UHGV virus genome: UHGV-0165226
DNA from: a virus
Direction: 5' to 3' (one strand)
DNA: 35,880 nucleotides
The translations under genes were made by a program, and so were the position numbers. A model generated the notes under the pieces. It did no database searches. It saw nothing but the letters and a program-made list of their open reading frames with translations, and was not told the origin of the DNA. How positions within the stretch are numbered: position 1 is the stretch's first letter; every line of letters begins with the position of its first letter. Shown piece by piece: positions 10-13,415 of the stretch.

Positions 10-29
10 TTGTGTACATTTGTACACAA
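10..29. promoter_or_regulatory. Near-palindromic operator-like site upstream of the TetR regulator gene
   Basis: Sequence TTGTGTACA-TT-TGTACACAA read at 10..29, an 18/20 inverted repeat just upstream of the ATG at 50. TetR regulators are commonly autoregulated through such palindromes. Confidence 0.3.
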
Positions 30-49
30 TTGCAGAGAGAGGAAATGAC

Positions 50-586
50 ATGCGTCGCGCTAACGATCCGCAACGGCGAGAAAAAATTATCCAGGCCACG
101 CTGGAGGCGGTGAAACTTTACGGAATACATGCTGTTACGCACCGCAAAATTGCTACCCTTGCCGGGGTACCGTTGGGATCGATGACCTACTATTTTTCAG
201 GAATTGATGAGTTGTTGCTGGAGGCGTTCAGCAGTTTTACTGAGATTATGTCCCGGCAATATCAGGCATTTTTTAGCGATGTTAGTGATGCTCAAGGCGC
301 ATGCCAGGCTATCACCGATATGATCTACAGCTCACAGGTTGCAACGCCGGATAATATGGAGCTGATGTACCAGCTCTACGCGCTGGCTAGCCGAAAACCG
401 CTATTAAAAACGGTAATGCAAAACTGGATGCAGCGCAGTCAGCAAACGCTCGAACAATGGTTTGAACCCGGAACCGCCCGCGCGCTTGATGCGTTTATTG
501 AGGGGATGACGCTGCATTTTGTCACCGACCGTAAGCCGCTATCGCGCGAGGAGATTTTGAGGATGGTTGAGAGGGTTGCAGGGTAG
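50..586 (+). CDS. rcdA: TetR/AcrR-family transcriptional regulator (host gene flanking the prophage)
   Basis: In-frame ATG at 50 after a GAGAGAGGA purine run; 178 aa; N-terminal HTH region ([39 protein letters not shown]). Sequence and length match my recollection of E. coli RcdA (YbjK); the symbol is from memory and unverified. Confidence 0.8.
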
Positions 587-603
587 TAGATAAGTTTTAG
601 ATA

Positions 604-631
604 ACAAAAAACCCATTTATGTAAACGGGTT
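604..631 (-). terminator. Possible intrinsic terminator downstream of int (minus strand)
   Basis: Hairpin AACCC...GGGTT (610..631) preceded on the plus strand by an A-run, which is a U-run on the minus-strand transcript. Confidence 0.35.
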
Positions 632-635
632 AATG

Positions 636-669
636 AAAACAATAAGTTAGATTAAAAACAATAAGTTAG
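636..669. repeat. Tandem 15-bp direct repeat AAAACAATAAGTTAG x2 in the int-proximal junction region
   Basis: Copies at 636..650 and 655..669, 19-bp period, between the TetR stop and the int stop. Candidate arm-type Int or IHF sites, or part of the att region. Confidence 0.6.
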
Positions 670-690
670 GTTGGTGGTCAGTGGTGGTTA

Positions 691-1743
691 TTACGGGGTA
701 ATGCCAACCGCTGCCGCCACTTTGTCGCCACTTGGCAGCGTTGCCAGAGGATTGAAACGGAGCGCCGTTTCTAGATGATCCGGTGCCAGATGTGCGTAAC
801 GCATAGTCATTTTTATATCGTGGTGTCCGAGAATTTTTTGTAAGGCCAGAATGTTTCCACCCGACATCATGAAGTGCGCCGCAAACGTATGGCGCAGAAC
901 GTGTGTGAGTTGACCGCGAGGGAGCACGATAGACGTTTTTTCCATCACGGATAAAAATTGAAAATAGCAGTCTGTGAAGAAATTGAACCCATCAAGCGCC
1001 ATGATCTCTTCGTAAAGCTCTTTACTGATAGGGATGCTTCTGTTTTTCTTCCCCTTCGTTCTGACAAAGGTAATTCGGTATTTGGTCACCTGTGAGCGGG
1101 TAAGATTTACGGCTTCACGCCAGCGTGCGCCTGTGCTTAAGCATATCTTAACTACCAGTGCCAGAATTGGGTCCTGACGTTTGCAATCAGCCAGCAATTC
1201 AACAATCTGCTCATGGGTAAGCCATGCCATCTCTTTTTCTGCGATGGTGAATTTTCGCATGTTCTCCAGTGGGTTCGGATACGACCATTCGCCCAGACGG
1301 GATAGTTCGCTAAAAACACTACTTAGATAGCTTTGCTCCAGGTTAATGGTGACCGGGCTTGCTCCTTTCTTCCATTTCTCGCTGAAGTAGATCTCGCCTG
1401 TCAGGCGTTTATCTCGATAGTGGGCAAACATTTTAGAGGTGAGATCGGTTGCAAGAGGATTGCCCAGAGCGTCAACCATCAACAGCAATTTGTCATAGAC
1501 ATGCTGCCCAGCTGTCAGAGATTTACCATGTAGTTTGAACCATAGCTCAACCACGTCTTTCAGTGTTCGACGATCCACTGATTCACCCAGCCAGGGCTTT
1601 GCTTCGGTTTCTTCCATCGTGTGGCGCTCAAAAGCCAGTGCTTCGCCTTTGGTAGCGAATTGTTTACGCACACGACGCCCACTTCGTCCGGCGGGGTAAC
1701 ATTCGCAAAGCCATTTCCCTGTGGTTAGTTTTCGTACTGCCAT
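691..1743 (-). CDS. int: Tyrosine integrase, P2 Int-like
   Basis: 350-aa ORF. N-terminus has the P2 Int-like pattern (GRSGRRVRKQFATKGEALAFERHT); C-terminal catalytic region (HVLRHTFAAHFMMSGG...LGHHDIKMTMRYAHL) carries the tyrosine recombinase R-H-R-Y signature. Sits at the prophage edge, transcribed toward the junction. Confidence 0.92.
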   Translation of the reverse strand: MAVRKLTTGKWLCECYPAGRSGRRVRKQFATKGEALAFERHTMEETEAKPWLGESVDRRTLKDVVELWFKLHGKSLTAGQHVYDKLLLMVDALGNPLATDLTSKMFAHYRDKRLTGEIYFSEKWKKGASPVTINLEQSYLSSVFSELSRLGEWSYPNPLENMRKFTIAEKEMAWLTHEQIVELLADCKRQDPILALVVKICLSTGARWREAVNLTRSQVTKYRITFVRTKGKKNRSIPISKELYEEIMALDGFNFFTDCYFQFLSVMEKTSIVLPRGQLTHVLRHTFAAHFMMSGGNILALQKILGHHDIKMTMRYAHLAPDHLETALRFNPLATLPSGDKVAAAVGITP

Positions 1744-1767
1744 AAAAAGCCCTCATATCAGAGGGCT
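1744..1767 (-). terminator. Intrinsic terminator of the cargo gene, abutting the int start codon
   Basis: Perfect 7-bp stem AGCCCTC / GAGGGCT with 6-nt loop (1748..1767). On the minus-strand transcript it is followed by UUUUU (plus-strand AAAAA at 1744..1748) running straight into the int ATG. Confidence 0.6.
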
Positions 1768-1825
1768 AAATTTAACTGTATATGTAACCAGTAATCAATG
1801 TGTGATTACTATGAAACATACATTG

Positions 1826-3502
1826 CTAAGCAACATGTAGTTCATCGTTGGCGGAAGTGGCTGCTTTGCGCTCCTGCTCAATAGCTAGAGACTCTCTATA
1901 TTCTTTCGCCTCTGCAAACATTGTCCAGTGGGCGTTGATGTTCATGTCTTCAATAACTGATTTGATTTCTTTTAAATTTACGTTAAAAAACTCTTTTCGT
2001 GAGTTAATTTTATTGACCTGCTTTTCGTTGAAAACTTTATGCAGATGGTTTTCTAATGATGGTGCATCATCACTATAAATCATCGCATGAACATCGAACG
2101 AAAAAGGAACACTAGCATCTCCGAGTTCACGAACACGATCAAGTGGTTCAAGGCGGCGTGTCATTCCAATTTTATATACATCTTCGCCAAATGAACCAAT
2201 ATTACTAATGATATAGACGTGGCCTGATCTGGTTTGTTGAGCCATAGAAATAGCTCGTTGATTTTTAGCTTCAGCTTCTTCATATTTTAACTGTAGTTCA
2301 GCTATTTTTTGCTCTAAAGCTAAGCGTTGTTCTTCATTTGCAAGCATAAGTTCTTTCGTTGCTTTATTTATAGCTTGCTGAATAGCTTTTTCTTCTTTTT
2401 CAGCTTCTTTTATCGCTTTTTCATATTCTCTACGAGCTCTTTCCTCTTCACGAAGCTGTTCTTTAATCCTTCTTTGCTCTTCTTTTTCTTCGAGCATAAT
2501 TTCATTAACTGCTACACCCCATTTTAGCTCGTTGAGTCTTGCCTGAAGATAGATGTCACTTATTTTTGCGGACCTAAAGGCAGAGCCATTGTAATTTACT
2601 AGTTGAAATGCATCTTTTATTTCTTGGGAAAGTTTTCCAAAATTGTTGTGTTTGACTTTTGATAAAATACTGTCAACTCTTCCATTGAAGGCATCCAAAA
2701 CAAAGTTTATGGCAGTATTACGCCTGTTTTGCTCAACATAATCACACGAAGCAGCTTTATTAGTTTTTATTAATGATTTGGTTAACTCTCTGGCTTTTTG
2801 TAATTCCTTGCCTGCATCTGTAAATTCATAATTTTCTGCCAGCTCATCAAGTACACTACGGTTAGGGATGATCCATTCATCACCATAACCTTCAATTTTA
2901 TTTTTCATTGATTTTGCAACTGCTTCATATTTTTCTGCAAACTCTTTAGCTTCATATGCTGAACCAGCAATCTCCTTTGCTCTTTCTTCTGCATCAGAAA
3001 TAATTTTTACTGCATTGTCATTAGCATTTGAGATTAGCTCATTTGCTTTATTATTAGCATTATCAAGACGTTCTTTGGCTTTCAGGCGTGCATCGCGAGC
3101 GTCTTTGGTGATTGCTATAGCTTCGCTATTAGCGTTGCTTATTGTCATCTGAGCTTGATAATTTGCTTCGTTTACTGTTTTAGCCGCCTTAATTTGGGCT
3201 TCATCTATTTTTTGCTTGGCTATTGAGTCCGCATTTTTTATCTTATTCTCTGCATCCATTACTGCGCTGTGCAATTCTTCGTATTGCCACAATGGTGCTG
3301 CTCGCCCTTCAAGCTCTGATAATTCTCGTACGGTCTGTGCTAGTTTTTCTTGATTTTCAACCAGTTGGTTAGAAAGGGCTATGTTGTTAGCTGTCAGGTT
3401 ATCTATAGCCGCTTTGTGTTTTTTACTTTGTTTAAATAATATTACAGCTAGAACAGGGGCGAGAAATGCTAATAAGAGTATAACGATGGCAAATGAATTC
3501 AT
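1826..3502 (-). CDS. Cargo protein: N-terminal transmembrane anchor, long coiled coil, C-terminal T5orf172/GIY-YIG-like domain (DUF4041-type architecture)
   Basis: 558-aa ORF, ATG at 3502 with AAGGA upstream. Hydrophobic N-terminus (FAIVILLLAFLAPVLAVILF), about 300 aa of K/E/A-rich heptad-like sequence, then GHVYIISNIGSFGEDVYKIGMTRRLEPLDRVRELGD...FDVHAMIYSDDAPSLENHLHKVF, which resembles the T5orf172/MUG113 motif. Strongly AT-rich relative to neighbours. Confidence 0.75.
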   Translation of the reverse strand: MNSFAIVILLLAFLAPVLAVILFKQSKKHKAAIDNLTANNIALSNQLVENQEKLAQTVRELSELEGRAAPLWQYEELHSAVMDAENKIKNADSIAKQKIDEAQIKAAKTVNEANYQAQMTISNANSEAIAITKDARDARLKAKERLDNANNKANELISNANDNAVKIISDAEERAKEIAGSAYEAKEFAEKYEAVAKSMKNKIEGYGDEWIIPNRSVLDELAENYEFTDAGKELQKARELTKSLIKTNKAASCDYVEQNRRNTAINFVLDAFNGRVDSILSKVKHNNFGKLSQEIKDAFQLVNYNGSAFRSAKISDIYLQARLNELKWGVAVNEIMLEEKEEQRRIKEQLREEERARREYEKAIKEAEKEEKAIQQAINKATKELMLANEEQRLALEQKIAELQLKYEEAEAKNQRAISMAQQTRSGHVYIISNIGSFGEDVYKIGMTRRLEPLDRVRELGDASVPFSFDVHAMIYSDDAPSLENHLHKVFNEKQVNKINSRKEFFNVNLKEIKSVIEDMNINAHWTMFAEAKEYRESLAIEQERKAATSANDELHVA

Positions 3503-3522
3503 TTTAAAATCCTTTTACTATA

Positions 3523-4119
3523 TTAATTCGAGACTATTGTACTTCTTATACAAGCAACCACTTCAATATCAGAAAATGCACATTCAAAGCTATTCTCTGC
3601 TGTTGTAATTTTAATCATTCCTTTAGGAAGCCTTGTGATTTTTCGAATGGAATAGGTTCCGTCGATATTGATTAACCAGTTTCCATCAAGTACTTCAGAA
3701 AATTTTTGATCACAAATGTATGTGACGAGTCCATCCTGAACAACAATTGGTGATGAAAGGTTTGCAGGAAGAAATGATGAATCGAAGACATATGAACCGT
3801 CTTCAATCATTTTGCCTGCGGCAAGGCGAAACTTAACAAGCTCTTCTGTAGCTGCTGTCAGCGAGCTTTGCTTAAGGCCTTGTCCGGTAGTTAACCATTT
3901 GAGGGAGGTTCCTGTTTCAAGAGCACATTGGATTATCCAGTCAGCAGGAAATGTATCCCGCAAATACCTGTTCGCTAGTGTGCTTTTTGATACTTCCAAG
4001 TGATCAGCTAAAGCCTGTCGTGTCGTAAAGCCATAGGCTTCGACTAATCGCTCAATCGCAGCCTTACCACCTTTATTGGGATTTATTTTGATCTCACTTG
4101 GGTACTTTGATGTTGACAT
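3523..4119 (-). CDS. cI: Immunity repressor, phage 186 CI-like
   Basis: 198 aa, similar in size to 186 CI (about 192 aa) and unlike P2 C (99 aa). HTH-like region (TTRQALADHLEVSKSTLANRYLRD) plus a C-terminal domain. Divergent from the apl/cII operon. Confidence 0.8.
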   Translation of the reverse strand: MSTSKYPSEIKINPNKGGKAAIERLVEAYGFTTRQALADHLEVSKSTLANRYLRDTFPADWIIQCALETGTSLKWLTTGQGLKQSSLTAATEELVKFRLAAGKMIEDGSYVFDSSFLPANLSSPIVVQDGLVTYICDQKFSEVLDGNWLINIDGTYSIRKITRLPKGMIKITTAENSFECAFSDIEVVACIRSTIVSN

Positions 4120-4141
4120 ATCTCTTTTGCGATCCTAGTAT
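4113..4141 (+). promoter_or_regulatory. Candidate lytic promoter pR (sigma-70) for apl-cII
   Basis: TTGACA at 4113..4118, 17-bp spacer, TAGTAT at 4136..4141; predicted start near 4148. The -35 element overlaps the first codons of cI on the other strand. Confidence 0.5.
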
Positions 4142-4148
4142 CAGTTTT

Positions 4149-4164
4149 GTACCCAATTGGGTAC
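4149..4164. promoter_or_regulatory. Perfect 16-bp palindrome GTACCCAATTGGGTAC, candidate operator
   Basis: Lies immediately downstream of the predicted pR -10. A third TTGGGTAC half-site occurs at 4098..4105 on the other side of the promoter. Confidence 0.5.
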
Positions 4165-4214
4165 TTGTCACGATTACTACAGGCTCACCACAAGCCAATA
4201 GGAGATGTTGCATC

Positions 4215-4436
4215 ATGACCCCTAACATTTCAATAACTCTGAATACGCCACACGTCACAATCGAGCGTTATAGCGAACTTACTGGTCTTTCAATCGACAC
4301 AATCAACGATATGTTGGCGGATGGTCGCATTCCTCGGCATCGTCTTCGTAAAGACAAGAAAAGAGAAAAGGTAATGATCAACCTTGCTGCTCTTACCGTT
4401 GATGCACTTACTGATTGCAATGTTGTATTCAACTAG
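4215..4436 (+). CDS. apl: Apl/Cox-like excisionase and switch regulator
   Basis: 73 aa, first gene of the rightward early operon; ATG at 4215 preceded by GGAG at 4201..4204. Position and size match 186 Apl or P2 Cox. The track ORF 4098..4436 starts upstream inside the promoter and is unlikely to be the true start. Confidence 0.65.
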
Positions 4437-4468
4437 TTCCATTTTGGGATACATCAGAGGTGTCGACC

Positions 4469-4978
4469 ATGTTTGATTACCAAGTTTCCAAACATCCACA
4501 TTTTGATGAAGCCTGTCGTGCATTCGCACTGCGCCACAATCTGGTGCAACTGGCAGAACGTGCGGGCATGAATGTGCAGATTCTGCGGAACAAGCTGAAC
4601 CCAGCTCAACCTCATTTATTAACCGCACCAGAAATCTGGCTGCTTACCGATCTGACTGAAGATTCAACGTTGGTAGATGGTTTTCTGGCACAGATTCATT
4701 GTCTGCCATGTGTACCGATTAATGAGGTAGCAAAAGAGAAACTGCCGCATTACGTCATGAGCGCAACTGCAGAGATCGGGCGTGTTGCAGCAGGTGCGGT
4801 ATCTGGTGATGTAAAAACTAGTGCCGGTCGTCGTGATGCTATCAGCAGCATTAACTCTGTAACACGACTGATGGCGCTGGCTGCTGTTTCATTGCAAGCC
4901 CGTTTACAGGCTAATCCTGCGATGGCGAGTGCAGTTGATACCATGACTGGCCTTGGTGCTTCATTCGGTTTGCTGTGA
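4469..4978 (+). CDS. cII: CII-like lysogeny-establishment activator
   Basis: ATG at 4469 with GAGG at 4457..4460; 169 aa, the same length as 186 CII; sequence resembles 186 CII as I recall it ([20 protein letters not shown]...[23 protein letters not shown]). Confidence 0.75.
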
Positions 4979-6269: not shown

Positions 6270-7123
6270 GCACCATCCTGAAATGGGCGGGAAATAAAAC
6301 CGCCATTATGCCAGAACTGAAAAAATACCTTCCTGCTGGCCCGCGACTGGTTGAACCTTTCGCGGGTTCCTGTGCTGTGATGATGGAAACGGATTATCCC
6401 AGCTATCTGGTTGCGGATATTAATCCTGATTTAATCAACCTCTATAAAAAGGTTGCCGCTGATTGTGAATCGTTTATATCTCGCGCCAGAGTTTTATTTG
6501 AGATCGCAAACAGGGAGGTGGCTTATTACAACATAAGGCAGGAGTTTAACTGCTCAACTGAAATTACTGATTTCATGAAAGCGGTATATTTCCTGTATCT
6601 CAATCGTCACGGTTACCGTGGTTTATGTCGCTATAACAAGAGCGGGCATTTCAACATTCCCTACGGTAATTATAAAAATCCGTATTTCCCTGAAAAAGAA
6701 CTTCGCACATTTGCAGAAAAAGCCCAGCGAGCGACGTTTATCTGCGCCAGCTTTGATGAAACGCTGGCGATGTTGAAGGCGGGAGATGTGGTGTATTGCG
6801 ATCCGCCATATGACGGTACGTTTTCCGGCTATCACACTGATGGTTTCACTGAAGATGACCAGTATCACCTGGCATCCGTTCTTGAACATCGGTCATCAGA
6901 AGGACATCCGGTCATTGTTTCTAACAGTGACACATCCCTGATCCGTTCGCTGTATCGCAATTTTCCTCACCACTATATCAAGGTAAAACGCAGCATCGGT
7001 GTGGCAGCTGGCGAGGGTAAATCAGCAACAGAAATCATTGCTGTTTCCGGGCCGCGCTGCTGGATGGGATTTGATTATTCGCGTGGCGTGGATAGTTCTG
7101 CCGTGTACGGAGTACGTGCATGA
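6266..7123 (+). CDS. dam: DNA adenine methyltransferase (Dam-like, N6-A MTase)
   Basis: ATG at 6266 with GGAGG at 6255..6259; motif I FAGSCAV and motif IV DPPY (VYCDPPYDG); N-terminus [11 protein letters not shown] is Dam-like. Confidence 0.9.
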
Positions 7124-9534
7124 GTCATGCCGATATGAACAACTGCTGCGGCTTTAACGAGGCTGCCGCAGCATTCTCATGGAACAGCCCGAAAAAGGCC
7201 ATTAACCCTTATCTGGACCCGGCGGAAGTTGCGCCGGTTTCTACGCTTTCAAACCTGATCACTCTGTACGCTGCCGATAACGAGCAGGAACAGTTGCGCC
7301 GCGAGGCACTGAGTGATCAGGTCTGGGAGCGTTATTTCTTTAATGAATCACGTGATCCTGTCCAGCGCGAAATGGAGCAGGATAAGCTCATTAGCCGGGC
7401 AAAGCTGGCGCATGAGCAGCAGCGTTTTAATTCAGACATGGTCATTCTGGCGGACGTCAACGCCCAGCCTTCCCATATCAGCAAGCCGCTGATGCAACGT
7501 ATTGAATACTTCAGCAGCCTGGGCAGGCCAAAGGCTTATTCCCGCTATTTACGTGAGACGATTAAGCCATGTCTGGAACGACTGGAGCATGTACGCGACA
7601 GTCAGCTATCTGCATCTTTTCGCTTTATGGCAAGCCATGAAGGGCTGGACGGCCTGCTGATCCTGCCTGAAATGAGTCAGGATCAGGTGAAACGCCTGTC
7701 CACCCTGGTAGCTGCGCATATGAGTATGTGCCTTGATGCAGCTTGTGGTGATTTGTATGCCACCGATGACGTTAAGCCAGAAGAAATCCGCAAGACATGG
7801 GAAAAGGTGGCAGCGGAAACCCTGCGTCTGGATGTCATCCCACCTGCGTTTGAGCAACTCCGTCGGAAAAGAAACCGCCGTAAACCCGTGCCCTATGAAC
7901 TCATTCCGGGTTCGCTGGCGCGTATGTTGTGCGCCGACTGGTGGTATCGGAAATTATGGAAGATGCGTTGCGAATGTCGGGAAGAGCAGTTGCGCGCTGT
8001 TTGCCTGGTCAGCAAAAAAGCATCTCCTTATGTCAGCTATGAAGCCGTGATGCATAAACGTGAGCAGCGCCGTAAGTCGCTGGAGTTTTTCCGTTCTCAT
8101 GAACTGGTGAACGAAGACGGCGACACGCTGGACATGGAGGATGTGGTAAACGCCAGCAGCAGCAACCCTGCGCATCGCCGCAATGAGATGATGGCCTGTG
8201 TTAAAGGTCTGGAGCTTATCGCGGAAATGCGCGGTGACTGCGCCGTTTTCTACACTATCACCTGTCCGTCGCGTTTCCATTCCACGCTAAATAACGGCAG
8301 ACCAAACCCGACCTGGACAAACGCGACGGTAAGACAAAGCAGCGATTATCTGGTCGGTATGTTTGCTGCATTTCGTAAGGCGATGCACAAAGCCGGGTTG
8401 CGCTGGTATGGCGTGCGGGTGGCTGAGCCGCATCATGATGGCACAGTTCACTGGCACCTGTTGTGTTTCATGCGCAAAAAAGACCGCCGTGCCATCACTG
8501 CATTACTGCGTAAGTTTGCCATCCGTGAAGACCGCGAGGAGCTGGGCAATAACACTGGGCCGCGCTTTAAGTCTGAGTTGATTAACCCGCGCAAAGGAAC
8601 GCCGACAAGCTACATCGCGAAATATATCAGTAAGAACATTGACGGTCGTGGTCTGGCTGGCGAGATCAGCAAGGAAACGGGTAAATCTCTGCGTGATAAC
8701 GCTGAATACGTGAATGCCTGGGCGTCTCTGCATCGTGTTCAGCAATTCCGCTTCTTTGGTATTCCGGGGCGTCAGGCTTACCGTGAACTTCGCTTGCTGG
8801 CTGGTCAGGCGGCAAGGCAACAGGGTGACAAAAAAGCAGGTGCGCCGGTACTGAATAACCCGCGTCTTGATGCCATTCTGGCTGCTGCTGATGCTGGTTG
8901 TTTTGCCACCTACATCATGAAGCAGGGCGGCGTACTGGTTCCCCGTAAATATCACCTCATCAGAACCGCTTATGAAATCAACGAAGAGCCGACCGCCTAT
9001 GGCGATCACGGCATTCGTATTTATGGCATCTGGTCACCCATTGCAGAGGGCAAGATCTGCACTCATGCAGTGAAGTGGAAAATGGTTCGTAAAGCCGTTG
9101 ACGTTCAGGAGGCGGCAGCCGACCAGGGCGCTTGCGCCCCTTGGACTCGTGGCAATAACTGTCCCCTTGCTGAAAATTTGAACCAACAAGGGAAAGACAA
9201 ATCAGCTGATGGGGATACCAGAACGGAAATCACCCGCATGGATGACAAGGAATTGCACGATTACCTGCACAGTATGAGCAAAAAAGAGCGCCGGGAACTG
9301 GCAGCAAGGTTACGCCTGGTTAAACCGAAACGGCGTAAAGACTACAAACAGCGAATTACAGATCATCAGCGACAGCAGCTCGTCTATGAACTGAAGTCCA
9401 GAGGATTTGATGGCAGCGAGAAAGAGGTCGATTTACTCCTTCGCGGCGGCAGTATTCCGTCAGGAGCAGGCCTGCGTATCTTCTATCGGAACCAGCGTCT
9501 GAAGGAAGATGATAAGTGGCGGAACCTGTATTAA
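7120..9534 (+). CDS. A: Replication initiation endonuclease, P2 gpA-like (rolling-circle HUH nickase)
   Basis: 804 aa. HUH-type motif [10 protein letters not shown] and active-site tyrosine motif YIAKYISKN. Start overlaps the dam stop (ATGA). Confidence 0.9.
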
Positions 9535-9626: not shown

Positions 9627-9646
9627 TACTGTAAATATAAACAGTA
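9627..9646 (+). promoter_or_regulatory. LexA operator (SOS box)
   Basis: TACTGTAAATATAAACAGTA fits CTGT-N8-ACAG with the AT-rich spacer of the E. coli LexA consensus; a half-site (TGTATACAGT) follows. About 40 bp upstream of the Tum/DinI-like genes. Confidence 0.7.
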
Positions 9647-9686
9647 GTTATGTATACAGTATTGTTTTGGTGTCATAGGAGGAAAG

Positions 9687-9875
9687 ATGCAGGACTATTT
9701 TTTGGAGTCTTTGAAGCTTCAGCGCATTGATTTTTTTCTTAAGCTTGTAGCGGCTAGTGAGTGTAGTGATGAAGAGAAGGGGCTGGCTCTGCAGTGGGTT
9801 TCTGAATTGACTGATGAACTTATGGCAAAAATCAGAAGCCACGAATACAACCGCTCAATGGATGTCATCAGCTGA
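9687..9875 (+). CDS. Small SOS-controlled protein, possibly the N-terminal part of a Tum-like antirepressor
   Basis: 62-aa ORF, ATG at 9687 with AGGAGG at 9677..9682, directly downstream of the LexA box. Confidence 0.5.
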   Translation: MQDYFLESLKLQRIDFFLKLVAASECSDEEKGLALQWVSELTDELMAKIRSHEYNRSMDVIS

Positions 9876-9885
9876 GGTGACTTTT

Positions 9886-10119
9886 ATGCGCATTGAAATA
9901 ATGATCGATAAAGAGCAGAAGATTAGCCAGTCTACCCTGGACGCCCTTGAATCCGAGCTTTACCGCAATCTGCGCCCCCTGTATCCCAAAACGGTAATTC
10001 GTATCCGAAAAGGTAGCTCTAACGGTGTGGAACTGACCGGACTGCAACTGGACGAAGAAAGAAAACAAGTGATGAAAATTATGCAGAAGGTGTGGGAAGA
10101 CGACAGCTGGCTGCATTAA
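9886..10119 (+). CDS. DinI-family protein (Tum/DinI-like, SOS-induced)
   Basis: 77 aa starting MRIEIMIDKEQ...LDALESEL...VWEDDSWL, resembling DinI (MRIEVTIAK...); ATG at 9886 with GAGGTGA upstream. The ORF frame is open back to 9814. Confidence 0.75.
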   Translation: MRIEIMIDKEQKISQSTLDALESELYRNLRPLYPKTVIRIRKGSSNGVELTGLQLDEERKQVMKIMQKVWEDDSWLH

Positions 10120-10208: not shown

Positions 10209-10766
10209 TCACATAAACATCTGGATTTGCTCGTTTTTTAGTTGGTTGATTTTTTCGCGCAATCTGATCTTTTCATCAGCTTTTTCCAAAGAGGCTGGTG
10301 ACATGCAGTTAATCAAAGCGTCAAGGTGCTCTGGAGATTTGATAATAAAGAACTTTTTGTATTTATTAACAAAAACGACAGAGCATTTTTTACGTTTAAG
10401 AAGCTCAATCACGTTACTCAGAGTACCCGTGCTCTTCGTATCCCAAACCATTAATCCATAATCGGCTTCTTCTGCCATTTTGAGATCTTTCGCAGTGAAA
10501 AACGCGCGAGTGCCGGCTGCATGGCTAGTACTTACTACATGTACAGGCCATGAGCCAAGATTATTGCGCGGTTTTTCTGAGCTACTGAATACTGTGGCTT
10601 TTTTACATCCAAGTTCTAGCAATACGCGTTGAACAGATGAATCAACACCATTGGCATCACCAACTACAATACGAAAACGCGAGTTAACAATTTTTTTCAG
10701 ACGATCCACGATGAGTGTGTCAAGGTTTTTGATGGTTATTGAACCAGCAACAAATACCGTAGTCAT
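10209..10766 (-). CDS. SLOG/DprA-LOG-like Rossmann-fold protein (cargo operon, gene 2)
   Basis: ATG at 10766 with GGAG 6 nt upstream, 2 nt after the stop of the PRTase gene; about 185 aa. Core VFVAGS...IVVGDANGVDSSVQRV...ATVF resembles the glycine-rich nucleotide-binding loop of DprA/Smf/LOG (SLOG) proteins. AT-rich. Confidence 0.7.
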   Translation of the reverse strand: MTTVFVAGSITIKNLDTLIVDRLKKIVNSRFRIVVGDANGVDSSVQRVLLELGCKKATVFSSSEKPRNNLGSWPVHVVSTSHAAGTRAFFTAKDLKMAEEADYGLMVWDTKSTGTLSNVIELLKRKKCSVVFVNKYKKFFIIKSPEHLDALINCMSPASLEKADEKIRLREKINQLKNEQIQMFM

Positions 10767-10768
10767 CA

Positions 10769-11350
10769 CTATCTCCAAGTCAAAGCTGCAACATAAATGC
10801 TTCTAACCTTAGTATAATCGTTTAGCACAGCACAAGCAGCCTCCATAGATGCGCCTGTATGGTAGAGGTCGTCAATGATAAGGACATTCCAGTTGCCATT
10901 ATTCTCAATACTGTCATTAACAGAGAACGAATTACCCAGCGCCGTGATTTTCTCTTCTTTTGTATTCAGGTTCTTTAGCGAAGCCCCGCCGGGGGCTTTC
11001 AACAAGAGGTCATCGAAGCATGGTTTGCCAACTAGTTTGGCTAGTTCCTGAGCTATTTCGGTCACTGGCTGGCGTGCACGCTGATTAGATGCAGCCATTG
11101 GAACGATAAACCCGACATTGCTGAAATGAGGAAAGGCATGCTCTGCTAGGCATTGGGCTAAAGGCTTAACTTGTGACCAATCGTCACGGTATTTAAGCTG
11201 GAAAAGAGATTCGCCTACCTCAGTACGCTCAGTCTCAAACCGCATATGTCCCCACTCATCGTAACCAATGGGAATGCTGCGGATGCTGTGTTTATCCATC
11301 GCAAGACCTAATTCCCAATTTCCAACAATCTGTTTTATGTTGACTTTCAT
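10769..11350 (-). CDS. Phosphoribosyltransferase (PRTase)-like protein (cargo operon, gene 1)
   Basis: 193 aa, ATG at 11350. C-terminal NVLIIDDLYHTGASMEAA matches the type I PRTase PRPP-binding loop (hydrophobic run, two acidic residues, T-G-A-S). No N-terminal Cys4 zinc finger. Confidence 0.75.
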   Translation of the reverse strand: MKVNIKQIVGNWELGLAMDKHSIRSIPIGYDEWGHMRFETERTEVGESLFQLKYRDDWSQVKPLAQCLAEHAFPHFSNVGFIVPMAASNQRARQPVTEIAQELAKLVGKPCFDDLLLKAPGGASLKNLNTKEEKITALGNSFSVNDSIENNGNWNVLIIDDLYHTGASMEAACAVLNDYTKVRSIYVAALTWR

Positions 11351-11614
11351 GGCTCACCGTTTGCTGTGTAAAACACCAAAGATTACCTCTTGTTATATTT
11401 GGTGAAAGCGAAAGTTTCATTTTTTGCAGTGGAGATCAAATGTTACTCCGTGAACATTTTTAGCATGTGGCCTCGCTACACGGTTTGGCGTAACTACTGC
11501 ATGTCTATACTGCATGAATCCGCATGATCGTTTAAGGATCGCTCTAGTTGGGGCCTGCTAGGTATGGCGGGCTTTTGCTTATGTCATGCAGGTGCATGAA
11601 AACCACTATATAAA

Positions 11615-11645
11615 GCGGGCAGGCGTGGCGGGGATACGAGCGCGC
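11615..11645. other. Candidate cos (cohesive-end) site
   Basis: GGCGTGGCGGGGATACGAGC at 11622..11641 resembles the 19-nt cohesive ends of 186 (GGCGTGGCGGGGAAAGCAT) and P2 (GGCGAGGCGGGGAAAGCAC) as I recall them. Memory-based; not verified. Confidence 0.35.
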
Positions 11646-11717
11646 GCATTGATTTCAAAAGATGAAATCAAGTGGTACGATAAGTAGGATTACTACCAAT
11701 TCTCAAAGGGATGTCTC

Positions 11718-13415
11718 ATGCATAGAATTGTTAAAGCTCATCTTGATAACTTCGTGAAAAGTCACGGTATTGAAAATCATCAAGAGGACACGCAGTTCGA
11801 GCTATTTTGTAATAAAGCTTTGCTGTCTTCTCGTATAAGTATGGATTATGAAATTGACGATGTAACAACCGGGGCTGGTGATGATGGCATGGATGGTGTT
11901 GCCATCATAATTGATGAAGAATTGTGTATATCTTCTGAAGATGCTACTTCAATATTTTCCTCATTACGTAAAAATCATGATGTTGATATTGTTTTCATTC
12001 AATCAAAGCGTAGTGAGTCTTTTGATTTAGGTGATTTTTTAAAGTTTAAAGCTTCCGTTTTTAGATTTATAGAGGATTCTCCTTACTTATGTGTGGATGA
12101 AATTCAAAAAAATGCAAGGGAAGTTTTTGATGTCATAATAAAAAATGTACCTAAGATAAGAGGTGGGCGACCAACTTTTACTGCTAAATATGTTGCAACT
12201 GGTTTATATAAAAAACCTAAAGAGTTAGAGAATGCTCGGAAGTTATTTGCAAAAGAAATTGACGAGTTGGGATATTTCTGTAATGTTAGCGTTGAGTTTG
12301 TTGATCGTGATGAATTAACACGTACTTGGATTGATACTTATTCAGTTGTCAATGCTGAATTGCCATTATTTAGTAATGCACCACTTCCCAAAATTAATGG
12401 TATAGAAGAAGCTTATCTTGCTGTCGTTAAAGCAAAGGATTTTGTTGGTAATTTATTGATGACGGACGAGGGGTCTCTCCGTAATCATGTTTTTGTTGAG
12501 AACGTCCGGGCGTTCTTGGGAATTGATAATCCTGTTAACGCATCGATTGCTGAGACAATTAAAAATAAAGATGCCGCTTCACGATTTCCTGTTTTAAATA
12601 ATGGAATAACAATTGTTAGTCCGGATGTAAAACTTCAAGGGAGTATTTTACATCTAGAAAATTTTCAGATAGTTAATGGCTGTCAGACATCAAATGTGCT
12701 TTACGAATGCCGCGATTCCTTAGATGATACGATGATGGTTAACTTGAAAGTCGTAGAGACATTAAACGAAGATGTTTTTTCAGAATTGGTTCGAGCGACT
12801 AACAGTCAGACTAAGGTTGATGAGACTCAGTTCTATTCTCTTCGTCCAATAATAAAGAAAGTAGAAGCGTACTTTGATACTTATGAAGGGCAGGATGGTC
12901 GTTTATATTTAGAAAGACGTGAAAGACAATTTATCGGTAGAGATATACCTGCAGTTAGAGTATTTTCAGTTCATATGGCAGCTAAATGTGTAGCAGCTAT
13001 GTTCTTCCGTCGGCCAGATCTTTCATATAGATACCCTAAAAAAATGTATGAATTGTTGGCTGAGAAAATATTTTCTAATGATACCAAGGAGATTGTATTT
13101 TATTCAGCATGTTTAACATTATATAGATTACACTTACTTACTTCTAATGCTGATATTCCACAAAATATCAGGAAGTATAAATGGCATTTAATGGCGGTAG
13201 TTGGTGCTTTAATTGCCGGAAAGGATGTGCCTAATTTTGGCTCTAAGAAAATGGATGCGTATTGTAATAAAATCATCACTGAAATGACAAAGCATGGTGA
13301 TAAAATAAAAGCTACTTTCCAGAAGGCTGTTGATATTGTTTTGTCAATTGATGATATCACTGATGATAGAATGAAAAGGCAAGCTATTTTAGAGGAAATG
13401 CTTGCCAAGATTTAA
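11718..13415 (+). CDS. AIPR-family (abortive-infection phage-resistance-like) protein
   Basis: 565 aa, ATG at 11718. Central motif VLNNGITIV...FQIVNGCQTS matches the AIPR family signature (NG...QT). Very AT-rich. Confidence 0.75.
   Translation: MHRIVKAHLDNFVKSHGIENHQEDTQFELFCNKALLSSRISMDYEIDDVTTGAGDDGMDGVAIIIDEELCISSEDATSIFSSLRKNHDVDIVFIQSKRSESFDLGDFLKFKASVFRFIEDSPYLCVDEIQKNAREVFDVIIKNVPKIRGGRPTFTAKYVATGLYKKPKELENARKLFAKEIDELGYFCNVSVEFVDRDELTRTWIDTYSVVNAELPLFSNAPLPKINGIEEAYLAVVKAKDFVGNLLMTDEGSLRNHVFVENVRAFLGIDNPVNASIAETIKNKDAASRFPVLNNGITIVSPDVKLQGSILHLENFQIVNGCQTSNVLYECRDSLDDTMMVNLKVVETLNEDVFSELVRATNSQTKVDETQFYSLRPIIKKVEAYFDTYEGQDGRLYLERRERQFIGRDIPAVRVFSVHMAAKCVAAMFFRRPDLSYRYPKKMYELLAEKIFSNDTKEIVFYSACLTLYRLHLLTSNADIPQNIRKYKWHLMAVVGALIAGKDVPNFGSKKMDAYCNKIITEMTKHGDKIKATFQKAVDIVLSIDDITDDRMKRQAILEEMLAKI

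Follow-up and report, generated by a model that had tools for sequence, protein, structure and literature searches.

In the temperate phages 186 and P2, the integrase gene int is read from the lysogenic transcript (PMC2951348; PMC7708051), and in 186 the stop codon of the immunity repressor gene cI overlaps the int start codon. Here we analyse a stretch of 35,880 nucleotides (nt) from the virus genome UHGV-0165226, the whole of which we call the window, where cI and int are instead 1,779 nt apart and the interval holds, besides a cargo gene of 558 codons, a promoter-like element that contains a LexA box, and also a hairpin running up to the int start codon. The cargo gene belongs with SNIPE (the same system as PD-lambda-1), which was discovered in a functional screen (Vassallo et al. 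2022, PMC9519451) and acts as a nuclease bound to the membrane, cleaving phage DNA while it is being injected (Saxton et al., Nature 2026, PMC13190303). SNIPE is constitutively localised to the membrane and consists of a transmembrane helix, DUF4041 and a GIY-YIG nuclease, with the N terminus shown experimentally to be periplasmic and the rest cytoplasmic; the ligands of DUF4041 are DNA and probably the tape measure protein, an E414A substitution loses defence, removal of the transmembrane helix makes the protein toxic, and the family varies in its N-terminal region, which possibly determines specificity (PMC13190303). A LexA box overlapping the promoter is known for integron integrase genes (PMC3108266). 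The combination that we find in front of int also recalls an insertion sequence. Davis, Simons & Kleckner reportedly described in 1985 (Cell 43:379; cited in PMC13181058) that an inverted repeat of IS10/Tn10 hides translation signals in transcripts that enter from outside, and that transcripts from the element's own promoter omit the 5' half of this repeat. Taken together, our data suggest, with a probability of roughly 0.65, that the window carries a SNIPE-family defence gene made from the cI transcript next to an autonomous, SOS-gated int cassette with a shield against read-through.

The three genes lie on the minus strand in the order cI (4119..3523), the 558-amino-acid (aa) open reading frame (ORF; 3502..1826) and int (1743..691). 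Between the cargo stop codon and int, we found a predicted int promoter (1769..1798, minus strand) in which the –35 hexamer TTGATT (1798..1793) and the –10 hexamer TTAAAT/TAAATT (1775..1769) flank a LexA/SOS box, CTGGTTACATATACAG (1791..1776), that fills the spacer and matches 16/20 consensus positions, with CTGG as a variant half-site. Folding and a scan for terminator-like sites place a hairpin with a U-tract directly after it (1744..1767, minus strand), composed of the 5' arm AGCCCTC (1767..1761), the loop tgatat (1760..1755), the 3' arm GAGGGCT (1754..1748) and TTTT (1747..1744). The int Shine-Dalgarno sequence GAGGG lies within the 3' arm, and the U-tract leads into the int ATG at 1743. 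A preliminary description of this locus had taken the hairpin for the cargo gene's own intrinsic terminator and did not mention the promoter-like element at 1798..1769. The hairpin and TTTT do sit at the int ATG as it said, but they do not belong to the cargo, because the same element recurs with other cargo, with no cargo at all and behind gpD-ogr. Its expectation of altered integrase regulation agrees with our comparison with 186, as the window's int appears to have a conserved LexA-box promoter-like element of its own.

We read the 70 nt before each int ATG at 77 loci encoding relatives of the integrase, with one genome per species; the cassette survey comprises 72 loci, the window and phage 4LV2017 included. 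A shared int module was found in 41 of these 72 loci across the Enterobacterales, giving 40 distinct cassettes. The module runs from a –35 hexamer (TTGAC(C/A) or TTTACA) through a LexA box located in a spacer of 16–18 nt, an A/T-rich –10 and a hairpin with a G-rich, Shine-Dalgarno-like 3' arm to the ATG. The start of the LexA box falls at –45 to –52 relative to the int ATG in all 41 loci, and the perfect form of the box, CTGT-N8-ACAG, is present in 28/40 distinct cassettes; over the same 40 the mean match to the LexA consensus (TACTGTATATATATACAGTA) is 15.7/20, and the sigma-70 promoter score is at least 9/12 in 31. When the leaders were aligned with MAFFT and analysed with RNAalifold, the LexA palindrome alone was recovered, since the differing hairpin sequences are out of register.

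The stems of the relatives fall into 13 sequence types in which pairing is kept, and in most of them the int Shine-Dalgarno sequence lies in the 3' arm. These types include AGCCCTC / GAGGGCT, as in the window, and ATGCTCTCC / GGAGGGCAT, CACATTCTC / GAGAATGTG, ACCCCCTT / AAGGGGGT, TCCTCCATT / AATGGAGGA and ACAGTCCTC / GGGGGCTGT. To quantify the pairing, we folded each sequence separately and compared native leaders with chimeras that join the 5' half of one stem type to the 3' half of another; the means were –10.8 kcal/mol for native leaders and –4.8 kcal/mol for chimeras (Mann-Whitney p = 6.5e-6). Compared with shuffled sequence, 10 of 13 representatives had a z-score of –4.3 or lower. The module is thus conserved, and its stem covaries. 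The window's own hairpin has a free energy of –13.3 kcal/mol, ranked first among terminator-like sites and has the layout of an intrinsic terminator, with a 7-bp stem containing five GC pairs followed by TTTT(A)T. Four or more T residues after the stem are found in 16/40 distinct cassettes, all of them close relatives of the window, indicating that what has been conserved is the masking of the int ribosome-binding site. The terminator-like character is an addition in the window's clade, and the hairpin evidently belongs to the int cassette rather than forming a cargo terminator.

The int cassette occupies two different genome contexts. Where it occurs together with a recognisable 186-type cI (26 loci), int lies 395–3,286 nt from cI. 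We found the cassette beside at least 12 cargo families: the cargo between cI and int is a SNIPE-like protein at 8 loci, PDC-S20 (KAP NTPase) at 3 (L014, L052, L075 in the survey numbering), PDC-M11 A+B at 2 (L012, L016), and HEC-01 A+B (L024) and PDC-M18 A+B (L018) at 1 locus each, while at least 7 further families consist of uncharacterised genes. Escherichia phage ESSI2_ev040, whose Int is 86% identical, has no cargo, and the 78 nt between its cI stop and int ATG (L083 3423..3500) are the cassette alone, made up of TTGACA, a LexA box of perfect form and, over the Shine-Dalgarno sequence, the hairpin ATACCCCT / AGGGGTAT. Phage 4LV2017 has an int that is 96.8% identical and different upstream genes; homology with the window breaks inside the hairpin, and yet its own 5' arm still pairs. 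The second context is found in Rahnella, Pantoea, Ewingella, Mixta, Acerihabitans, Winslowiella and one Pectobacterium (L027-L035, L037-L039, L046, L079), where the cassette is not after cI but directly 3' of gpU, gpD and ogr and codirectional with them, which means that the repressor operon cannot feed int there. In contrast to both contexts, phage 186 and 16 related loci have cI abutting or overlapping int (gap of 0–10 nt) with neither box nor hairpin. A LexA box ahead of int in P2/186-like phages was not described anywhere in the full-text literature that we searched, including a 2011 phylogeny of P2-like regulatory genes, a 2026 survey of P2/P4 hotspots and Panis et al. 2010, a body of text that largely leaves subscription journals uncovered.

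Measured from where the –10 ends, the hairpin's 5' arm starts at –6 to +4 nt in 39/39 hairpin-bearing cassettes, and with this geometry a transcription start site 6–9 nt past the –10 is predicted to fall in the 5' arm or the loop. When we folded shortened window transcripts, the stem was reduced to a remnant of 4 bp with a start at 1764 and was gone with a start at 1762. LexA binding and the position of the start site are what we infer from sequence, and the working of the cassette would be as follows. Transcripts arriving from cI and the cargo (or from late genes) would carry the whole hairpin, so that the int Shine-Dalgarno sequence would be buried in every clade, and in the window's clade transcripts from cI and the cargo would also terminate at the U-tract. 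Transcripts from the LexA-controlled promoter would start inside the 5' arm, lack the hairpin and allow int to be translated. Int would in this way be uncoupled from the repressor operon and induced by SOS together with a LexA-controlled tum/DinI-like operon. The likeness to IS10 lies in the G-rich, Shine-Dalgarno-like run in the 3' arm of most stem types and in a pairing that is backed by the covariation test; the gene here encodes a phage integrase and not a transposase, its start site is predicted only, the hairpin of the window's clade also resembles an intrinsic terminator, and no sign of an antisense RNA was seen. With integron integrases the cassette shares a tyrosine recombinase gene, a LexA box on its promoter and a tie between recombination and SOS. 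The recombinase family and the element are different, and the int cassette adds a hairpin that covers the ribosome-binding site; its carrier is a temperate phage in which an antirepressor-like operon is SOS-controlled too.

The broader scenario is that a 186/P2-like lineage replaced expression of int from the repressor operon with an SOS-gated, read-through-shielded cassette, which would make Int a direct LexA output and the cI-int or ogr-int junction a safe harbour where defence genes could enter and be read from the repressor transcript with the control of integration and excision left undisturbed; we hold the odds for and against this scenario to be evenly balanced. Recasting the presumed terminator as a widespread int cassette would be the added value of our analysis, and we regard it as moderately interesting. 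The textbook picture is that int of P2 and 186 rides on the repressor transcript, and many relatives in the Enterobacterales may use a portable, LexA-controlled and shielded cassette. If this is true, the cassette would explain how a defence hotspot can exist between cI and int, the integrase would join the SOS outputs of 186/P2-like prophages, and the cassette would be a compact natural design for an insulator. As at the defence hotspots described in P2-like prophages (PMC9122126; PMC9519451; PMC13586616), the cargo is variable, AT-rich and found at a fixed position, and HEC-01 and the PDC families, which are PADLOC candidate defence systems, occur at the same site in relatives; the classical sites are gpA-portal and Z/fun, whereas the cargo here lies between cI and int. 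We rejected the idea that the cI-int site is a new hotspot, as the 2026 survey already gives a minor integrase-primase hotspot. Unannotated pairs of genes were also seen at the cI-int site (L007/L001), for example a 350-aa protein with a 201-aa multi-pass membrane protein.

Two other features of the window's int leader were noted. An 8-bp inverted repeat, AGTAATCA-cacat-TGATTACT (1790..1810, minus strand), overlaps the predicted –35; it is present in the window and in L006 and absent from the other cassettes, and it joins a second stable structure in the read-through transcript (–32.1 kcal/mol for 1830..1735, z = –5.0). A search of Rfam over 1741..1809 (minus strand) gave only a sub-threshold match to RyhB (28.5 bits against a gathering score of 55, E = 0.07), which we rejected as a chance match because a hairpin with a U-tract resembles the terminator of a small RNA.

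The cargo gene (1826..3502, minus strand, stop codon at 1826..1828) encodes a member of the SNIPE/PD-lambda-1 family, as identified by PADLOC, by PHROG 1847 and by a homologue in PhiR26_1. The sole hydrophobic segment is an N-terminal transmembrane helix at aa 4–23 (3434..3493, minus strand), with a Kyte-Doolittle mean over 19 residues of 3.16 compared with 1.6 or less at every other position; it is followed by a KQSKKHK cluster, and the positive-inside rule implies that the N terminus would be outside, the C terminus inside and the bulk of the protein cytoplasmic. Next comes a variable N-terminal adapter region at aa 24–264 (2711..3433, minus strand), which is predicted to form long helices and has no similarity to the PhiR26_1 protein, then DUF4041 at aa 267–322 (2537..2704, minus strand; Pfam PF13250, E = 3e-12, 46.6 bits against a cut-off of 27) and a T5orf172/MUG113 (GIY-YIG-type) nuclease domain at aa 427–520 (1943..2224, minus strand; Pfam T5orf172, E = 3e-17; MUG113, E = 4e-20). 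All three Pfam scores exceed the gathering thresholds. The single N-terminal helix and the T5orf172/MUG113 C terminus, together with the DUF4041 and T5orf172 matches, are as the preliminary description proposed for this 558-aa ORF, and its guess of a superinfection-exclusion or defence gene is borne out by the family to which the protein belongs.

The PADLOC profile PD-Lambda-1 (PDLC03976) matches aa 116–550 over positions 37–481 of 491 with E = 2.4e-120, and PHROG 1847 matches with E = 8e-133. The C-terminal 293 aa are 50% identical to a 500-aa PhiR26_1 protein annotated as PD-lambda-1, and identity is higher still in the nuclease motifs, where GHVY (427–430), VYKIG (442–446), RR (449–450) and APSLE (480–484) are all kept. 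In the alignment to this protein, Glu484 (codon 2051..2053, minus strand) pairs with residue 414, the Glu of APSLE, and is thereby aligned with SNIPE E414. The GIY-YIG motifs and the equivalent of the catalytic Glu are invariant in 17 homologues (82–100% identity). We found that the cargo is thus an ordinary, prophage-borne member of a known family, a single gene with an N-terminal anchor, DUF4041, a long helix, a C-terminal GIY-YIG (T5orf172) domain and the catalytic Glu equivalent. By homology to SNIPE we infer its nuclease activity, and it would act as a constitutive inner-membrane protein that cleaves the DNA injected by superinfecting phages as it enters.

In contrast to the C-terminal part, the N-terminal 264 aa are unrelated in sequence to the corresponding 195 aa of the PhiR26_1 homologue and about 70 aa longer, although the transmembrane helix comes first in both proteins and the difference lies inside the variability described for the family. 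The divergence fits the finding of the SNIPE authors that the N-terminal region is variable and possibly determines specificity, and this region probably sets the entry route or the phages that are targeted. The carriers also differ: the cargo gene sits between cI and int of a 186-like myovirus, while the annotated PhiR26_1 homologue is in a lambdoid phage. Homologues of the cargo protein number in the thousands, and the best 120 are all from Enterobacterales, 82–100% identical, 525–565 aa long and mostly named 'DUF4041 domain-containing protein'; the cI-cargo-int junction is found (at least 80% coverage) in 163 of 5,426 complete E. coli genomes. The cargo thereby adds one more prophage-borne SNIPE homologue to those already common in databases, and its distinct adapter could help to test the proposed role of this region in phage specificity. 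Near-full-length homologues were also seen in Synechococcus phages (52% identity, aa 45–541) and in viruses of the thermophile Marinitoga (54–55%, aa 145–555), indicating wide horizontal spread of this SNIPE subtype with its long N-terminal region included.

To relate the cargo to the repressor gene, we looked at the 20-nt spacer between them (3503..3522, minus strand), which contains a Shine-Dalgarno sequence, AAGGA, 6 nt ahead of the cargo ATG. No promoter-like site was predicted on the minus strand of the spacer, and terminator prediction gave no convincing site between cI and the cargo, the one nearby match lying inside cI and lacking a T-run. The short gap and the lack of a predicted promoter or convincing terminator make co-transcription plausible, and the cI transcript is the most likely source of the cargo in the lysogen. 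A 198-aa cI allele (82–100% identity) is present in all 8 loci with the SNIPE-like gene (the window, L006, L009-L011, L013, L015 and L020) and was seen only with that gene in the sample; comparison with cI proteins from six loci that carry other cargo gave at most 56% identity, which suggests that this cI allele and the SNIPE-like gene travel as one module. The GC content is 37.0% for the cargo, 48.8% for int and 40.2% for cI, whose C-terminal half (3523..3820) is at 35.6%. The preliminary description had put the cargo start 21 bp past the cI stop with its own Shine-Dalgarno sequence, of which the latter is right and the distance is 20 nt; it had also called the cargo far more AT-rich than both neighbours, which is so for int and not for cI.

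Several points weigh against this picture of a SNIPE-family gene beside an SOS-gated cassette. The PhiR26_1 protein is taken as the equivalent of SNIPE from its annotation and consistent residue numbering, with no stated accession, and a sequence search of solved structures with the nuclease domain returned a single chance match to a DARPin. AlphaFold2, given a 17-sequence alignment of 82–100% identity, failed to confirm the fold (mean pLDDT 53.5, pTM 0.23, globular parts below 50), and its low-confidence model has long helices at aa 2–64, 72–203 and 315–424. The window's LexA box has CTGG and not CTGT, its –35 TTGATT and its –10 are weak, and a promoter scan of the window made no call at the predicted int promoter (1769..1798). 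The main difficulty is the supply of Int for integration after infection, which is hard to explain if int is LexA-repressed and also shielded from CII-activated pE/pL transcripts. Finally, an alternative –10, TACAGT, lies inside the box and would place the start just upstream of the hairpin, so that transcripts from the promoter would include it.

If the start lay there, 1–3 nt ahead of the 5' arm, the promoter could be real and the full hairpin could serve in its transcripts as an attenuator, as a translational operator for a phage protein or to stabilise the 5' end. There is a precedent of this kind in P4, where P4 int is under negative control by the integrase and the excisionase Vis, the latter with int mRNA as its proposed target (PMC2951348). 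We consider this explanation unlikely. TACAGT is 12 nt from the conserved TTGAC(C/A), as opposed to the spacer of 16–18 nt that the hexamer just 3' of the box gives in 40/40 cassettes, and a protein operator should keep its sequence, whereas the stems differ wholly between clades and only the pairing is kept.

The hairpin might also be a plain intrinsic terminator of the cI-cargo operon, with a non-functional LexA-like palindrome and with int expressed by partial read-through or another signal. The window taken by itself lends this some weight, through the GC-rich 7-bp stem and T-run that led the ranking of terminator-like sites and through the departure of its box and promoter hexamers from consensus. 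We nevertheless find it less probable again than a hairpin carried in promoter transcripts, since the box and hairpin occur together in 41 loci whatever lies upstream, including loci with no cargo and those behind gpD-ogr, termination is not conserved (a run of at least four T in just 16/40 distinct cassettes), and the LexA box holds its position while the flanks diverge.

The remaining alternative concerns the cargo. GenBank ON470620.1 and OM835953.1 label the gene 'chromosome segregation ATPase', and some JGI records label it 'vacuolar-type H+-ATPase subunit H'; both ATPase labels derive from coiled-coil matches and are wrong. That the protein is structural or acts in segregation, as the two GenBank annotations and weak coiled-coil matches to SMC, to V-ATPase subunit E and, in the N-terminal helical region, to DivIVA/Wag31 (sub-threshold) could suggest, or that it is a membrane exclusion protein blocking entry without cutting DNA, is very improbable: we rejected the SMC reading on the lack of a Walker A motif and a NCBIfam SMC score of 15.5 bits (cut-off 729), and the DivIVA and V-ATPase subunit E readings on matches far under their cut-offs, the GIY-YIG motifs and catalytic Glu equivalent are invariant among the homologues, and E414A abolishes SNIPE defence (PMC13190303).

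The window begins with the host TetR-family gene rcdA (20..586), after which prophage DNA follows, and it is a 186-like (Peduoviridae) prophage whose integration site adjoins this host gene. Over 600..4500 it shares 99.9% identity with Escherichia phage vB_EcoM-813R9 and 96% with Klebsiella phage KP12. The 198-aa cI product (3523..4119, minus strand; Pfam Phage_CI_repr, E = 8e-32; Phage_CI_C, E = 4e-27) is a 186-type immunity repressor encoded by the first gene of the leftward lysogenic operon, and int (691..1743, minus strand) encodes a tyrosine integrase of 350 aa with Pfam Int_N and Phage_integrase domains and 54.5% identity to 186 Int (tblastn). The genes apl/cox, cII (Pfam CP76) and fil and those for replication follow on the plus strand, and the arrangement is that of a 186-type switch region. 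The resemblance to 186 thus covers cI, Apl/Cox, CII and Int, and it extends to a LexA-controlled tum-like function. A terminator-like hairpin with a T-run is predicted 3' of the int stop codon (610..631, minus strand) and would close a self-contained int transcription unit beside attL. Between the int stop and this hairpin, beside the host junction, a 15-nt direct repeat, AAAACAATAAGTTAG, is present in two copies (636..650 and 655..669) that could be Int arm-type sites or features of attL.

Further into the prophage, a perfect LexA box, CTGTAAATATAAACAG (9629..9644, plus strand), sits just past replication gene A (7120..9534) and ahead of a 62-aa ORF (9687..9875) and a DinI-family ORF (9886..10119; Pfam DinI, E = 7e-23). 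In 186, tum is expressed from the LexA-regulated p95 promoter (PMC7708051), and 9629..10119 resembles a split version of the tum antirepressor operon of 186, so the phage appears to be wired to the SOS response. The gpA-portal hotspot of the window (10209..13415) also carries defence cargo, comprising an AbiU/AIPR protein (11718..13415, plus strand; PADLOC AbiU, E = 4e-112) and a weak match to a ShosT-like phosphoribosyltransferase (10769..11350, minus strand; E = 1e-8) with an overlapping partner of 189 aa (10209..10778, minus strand).

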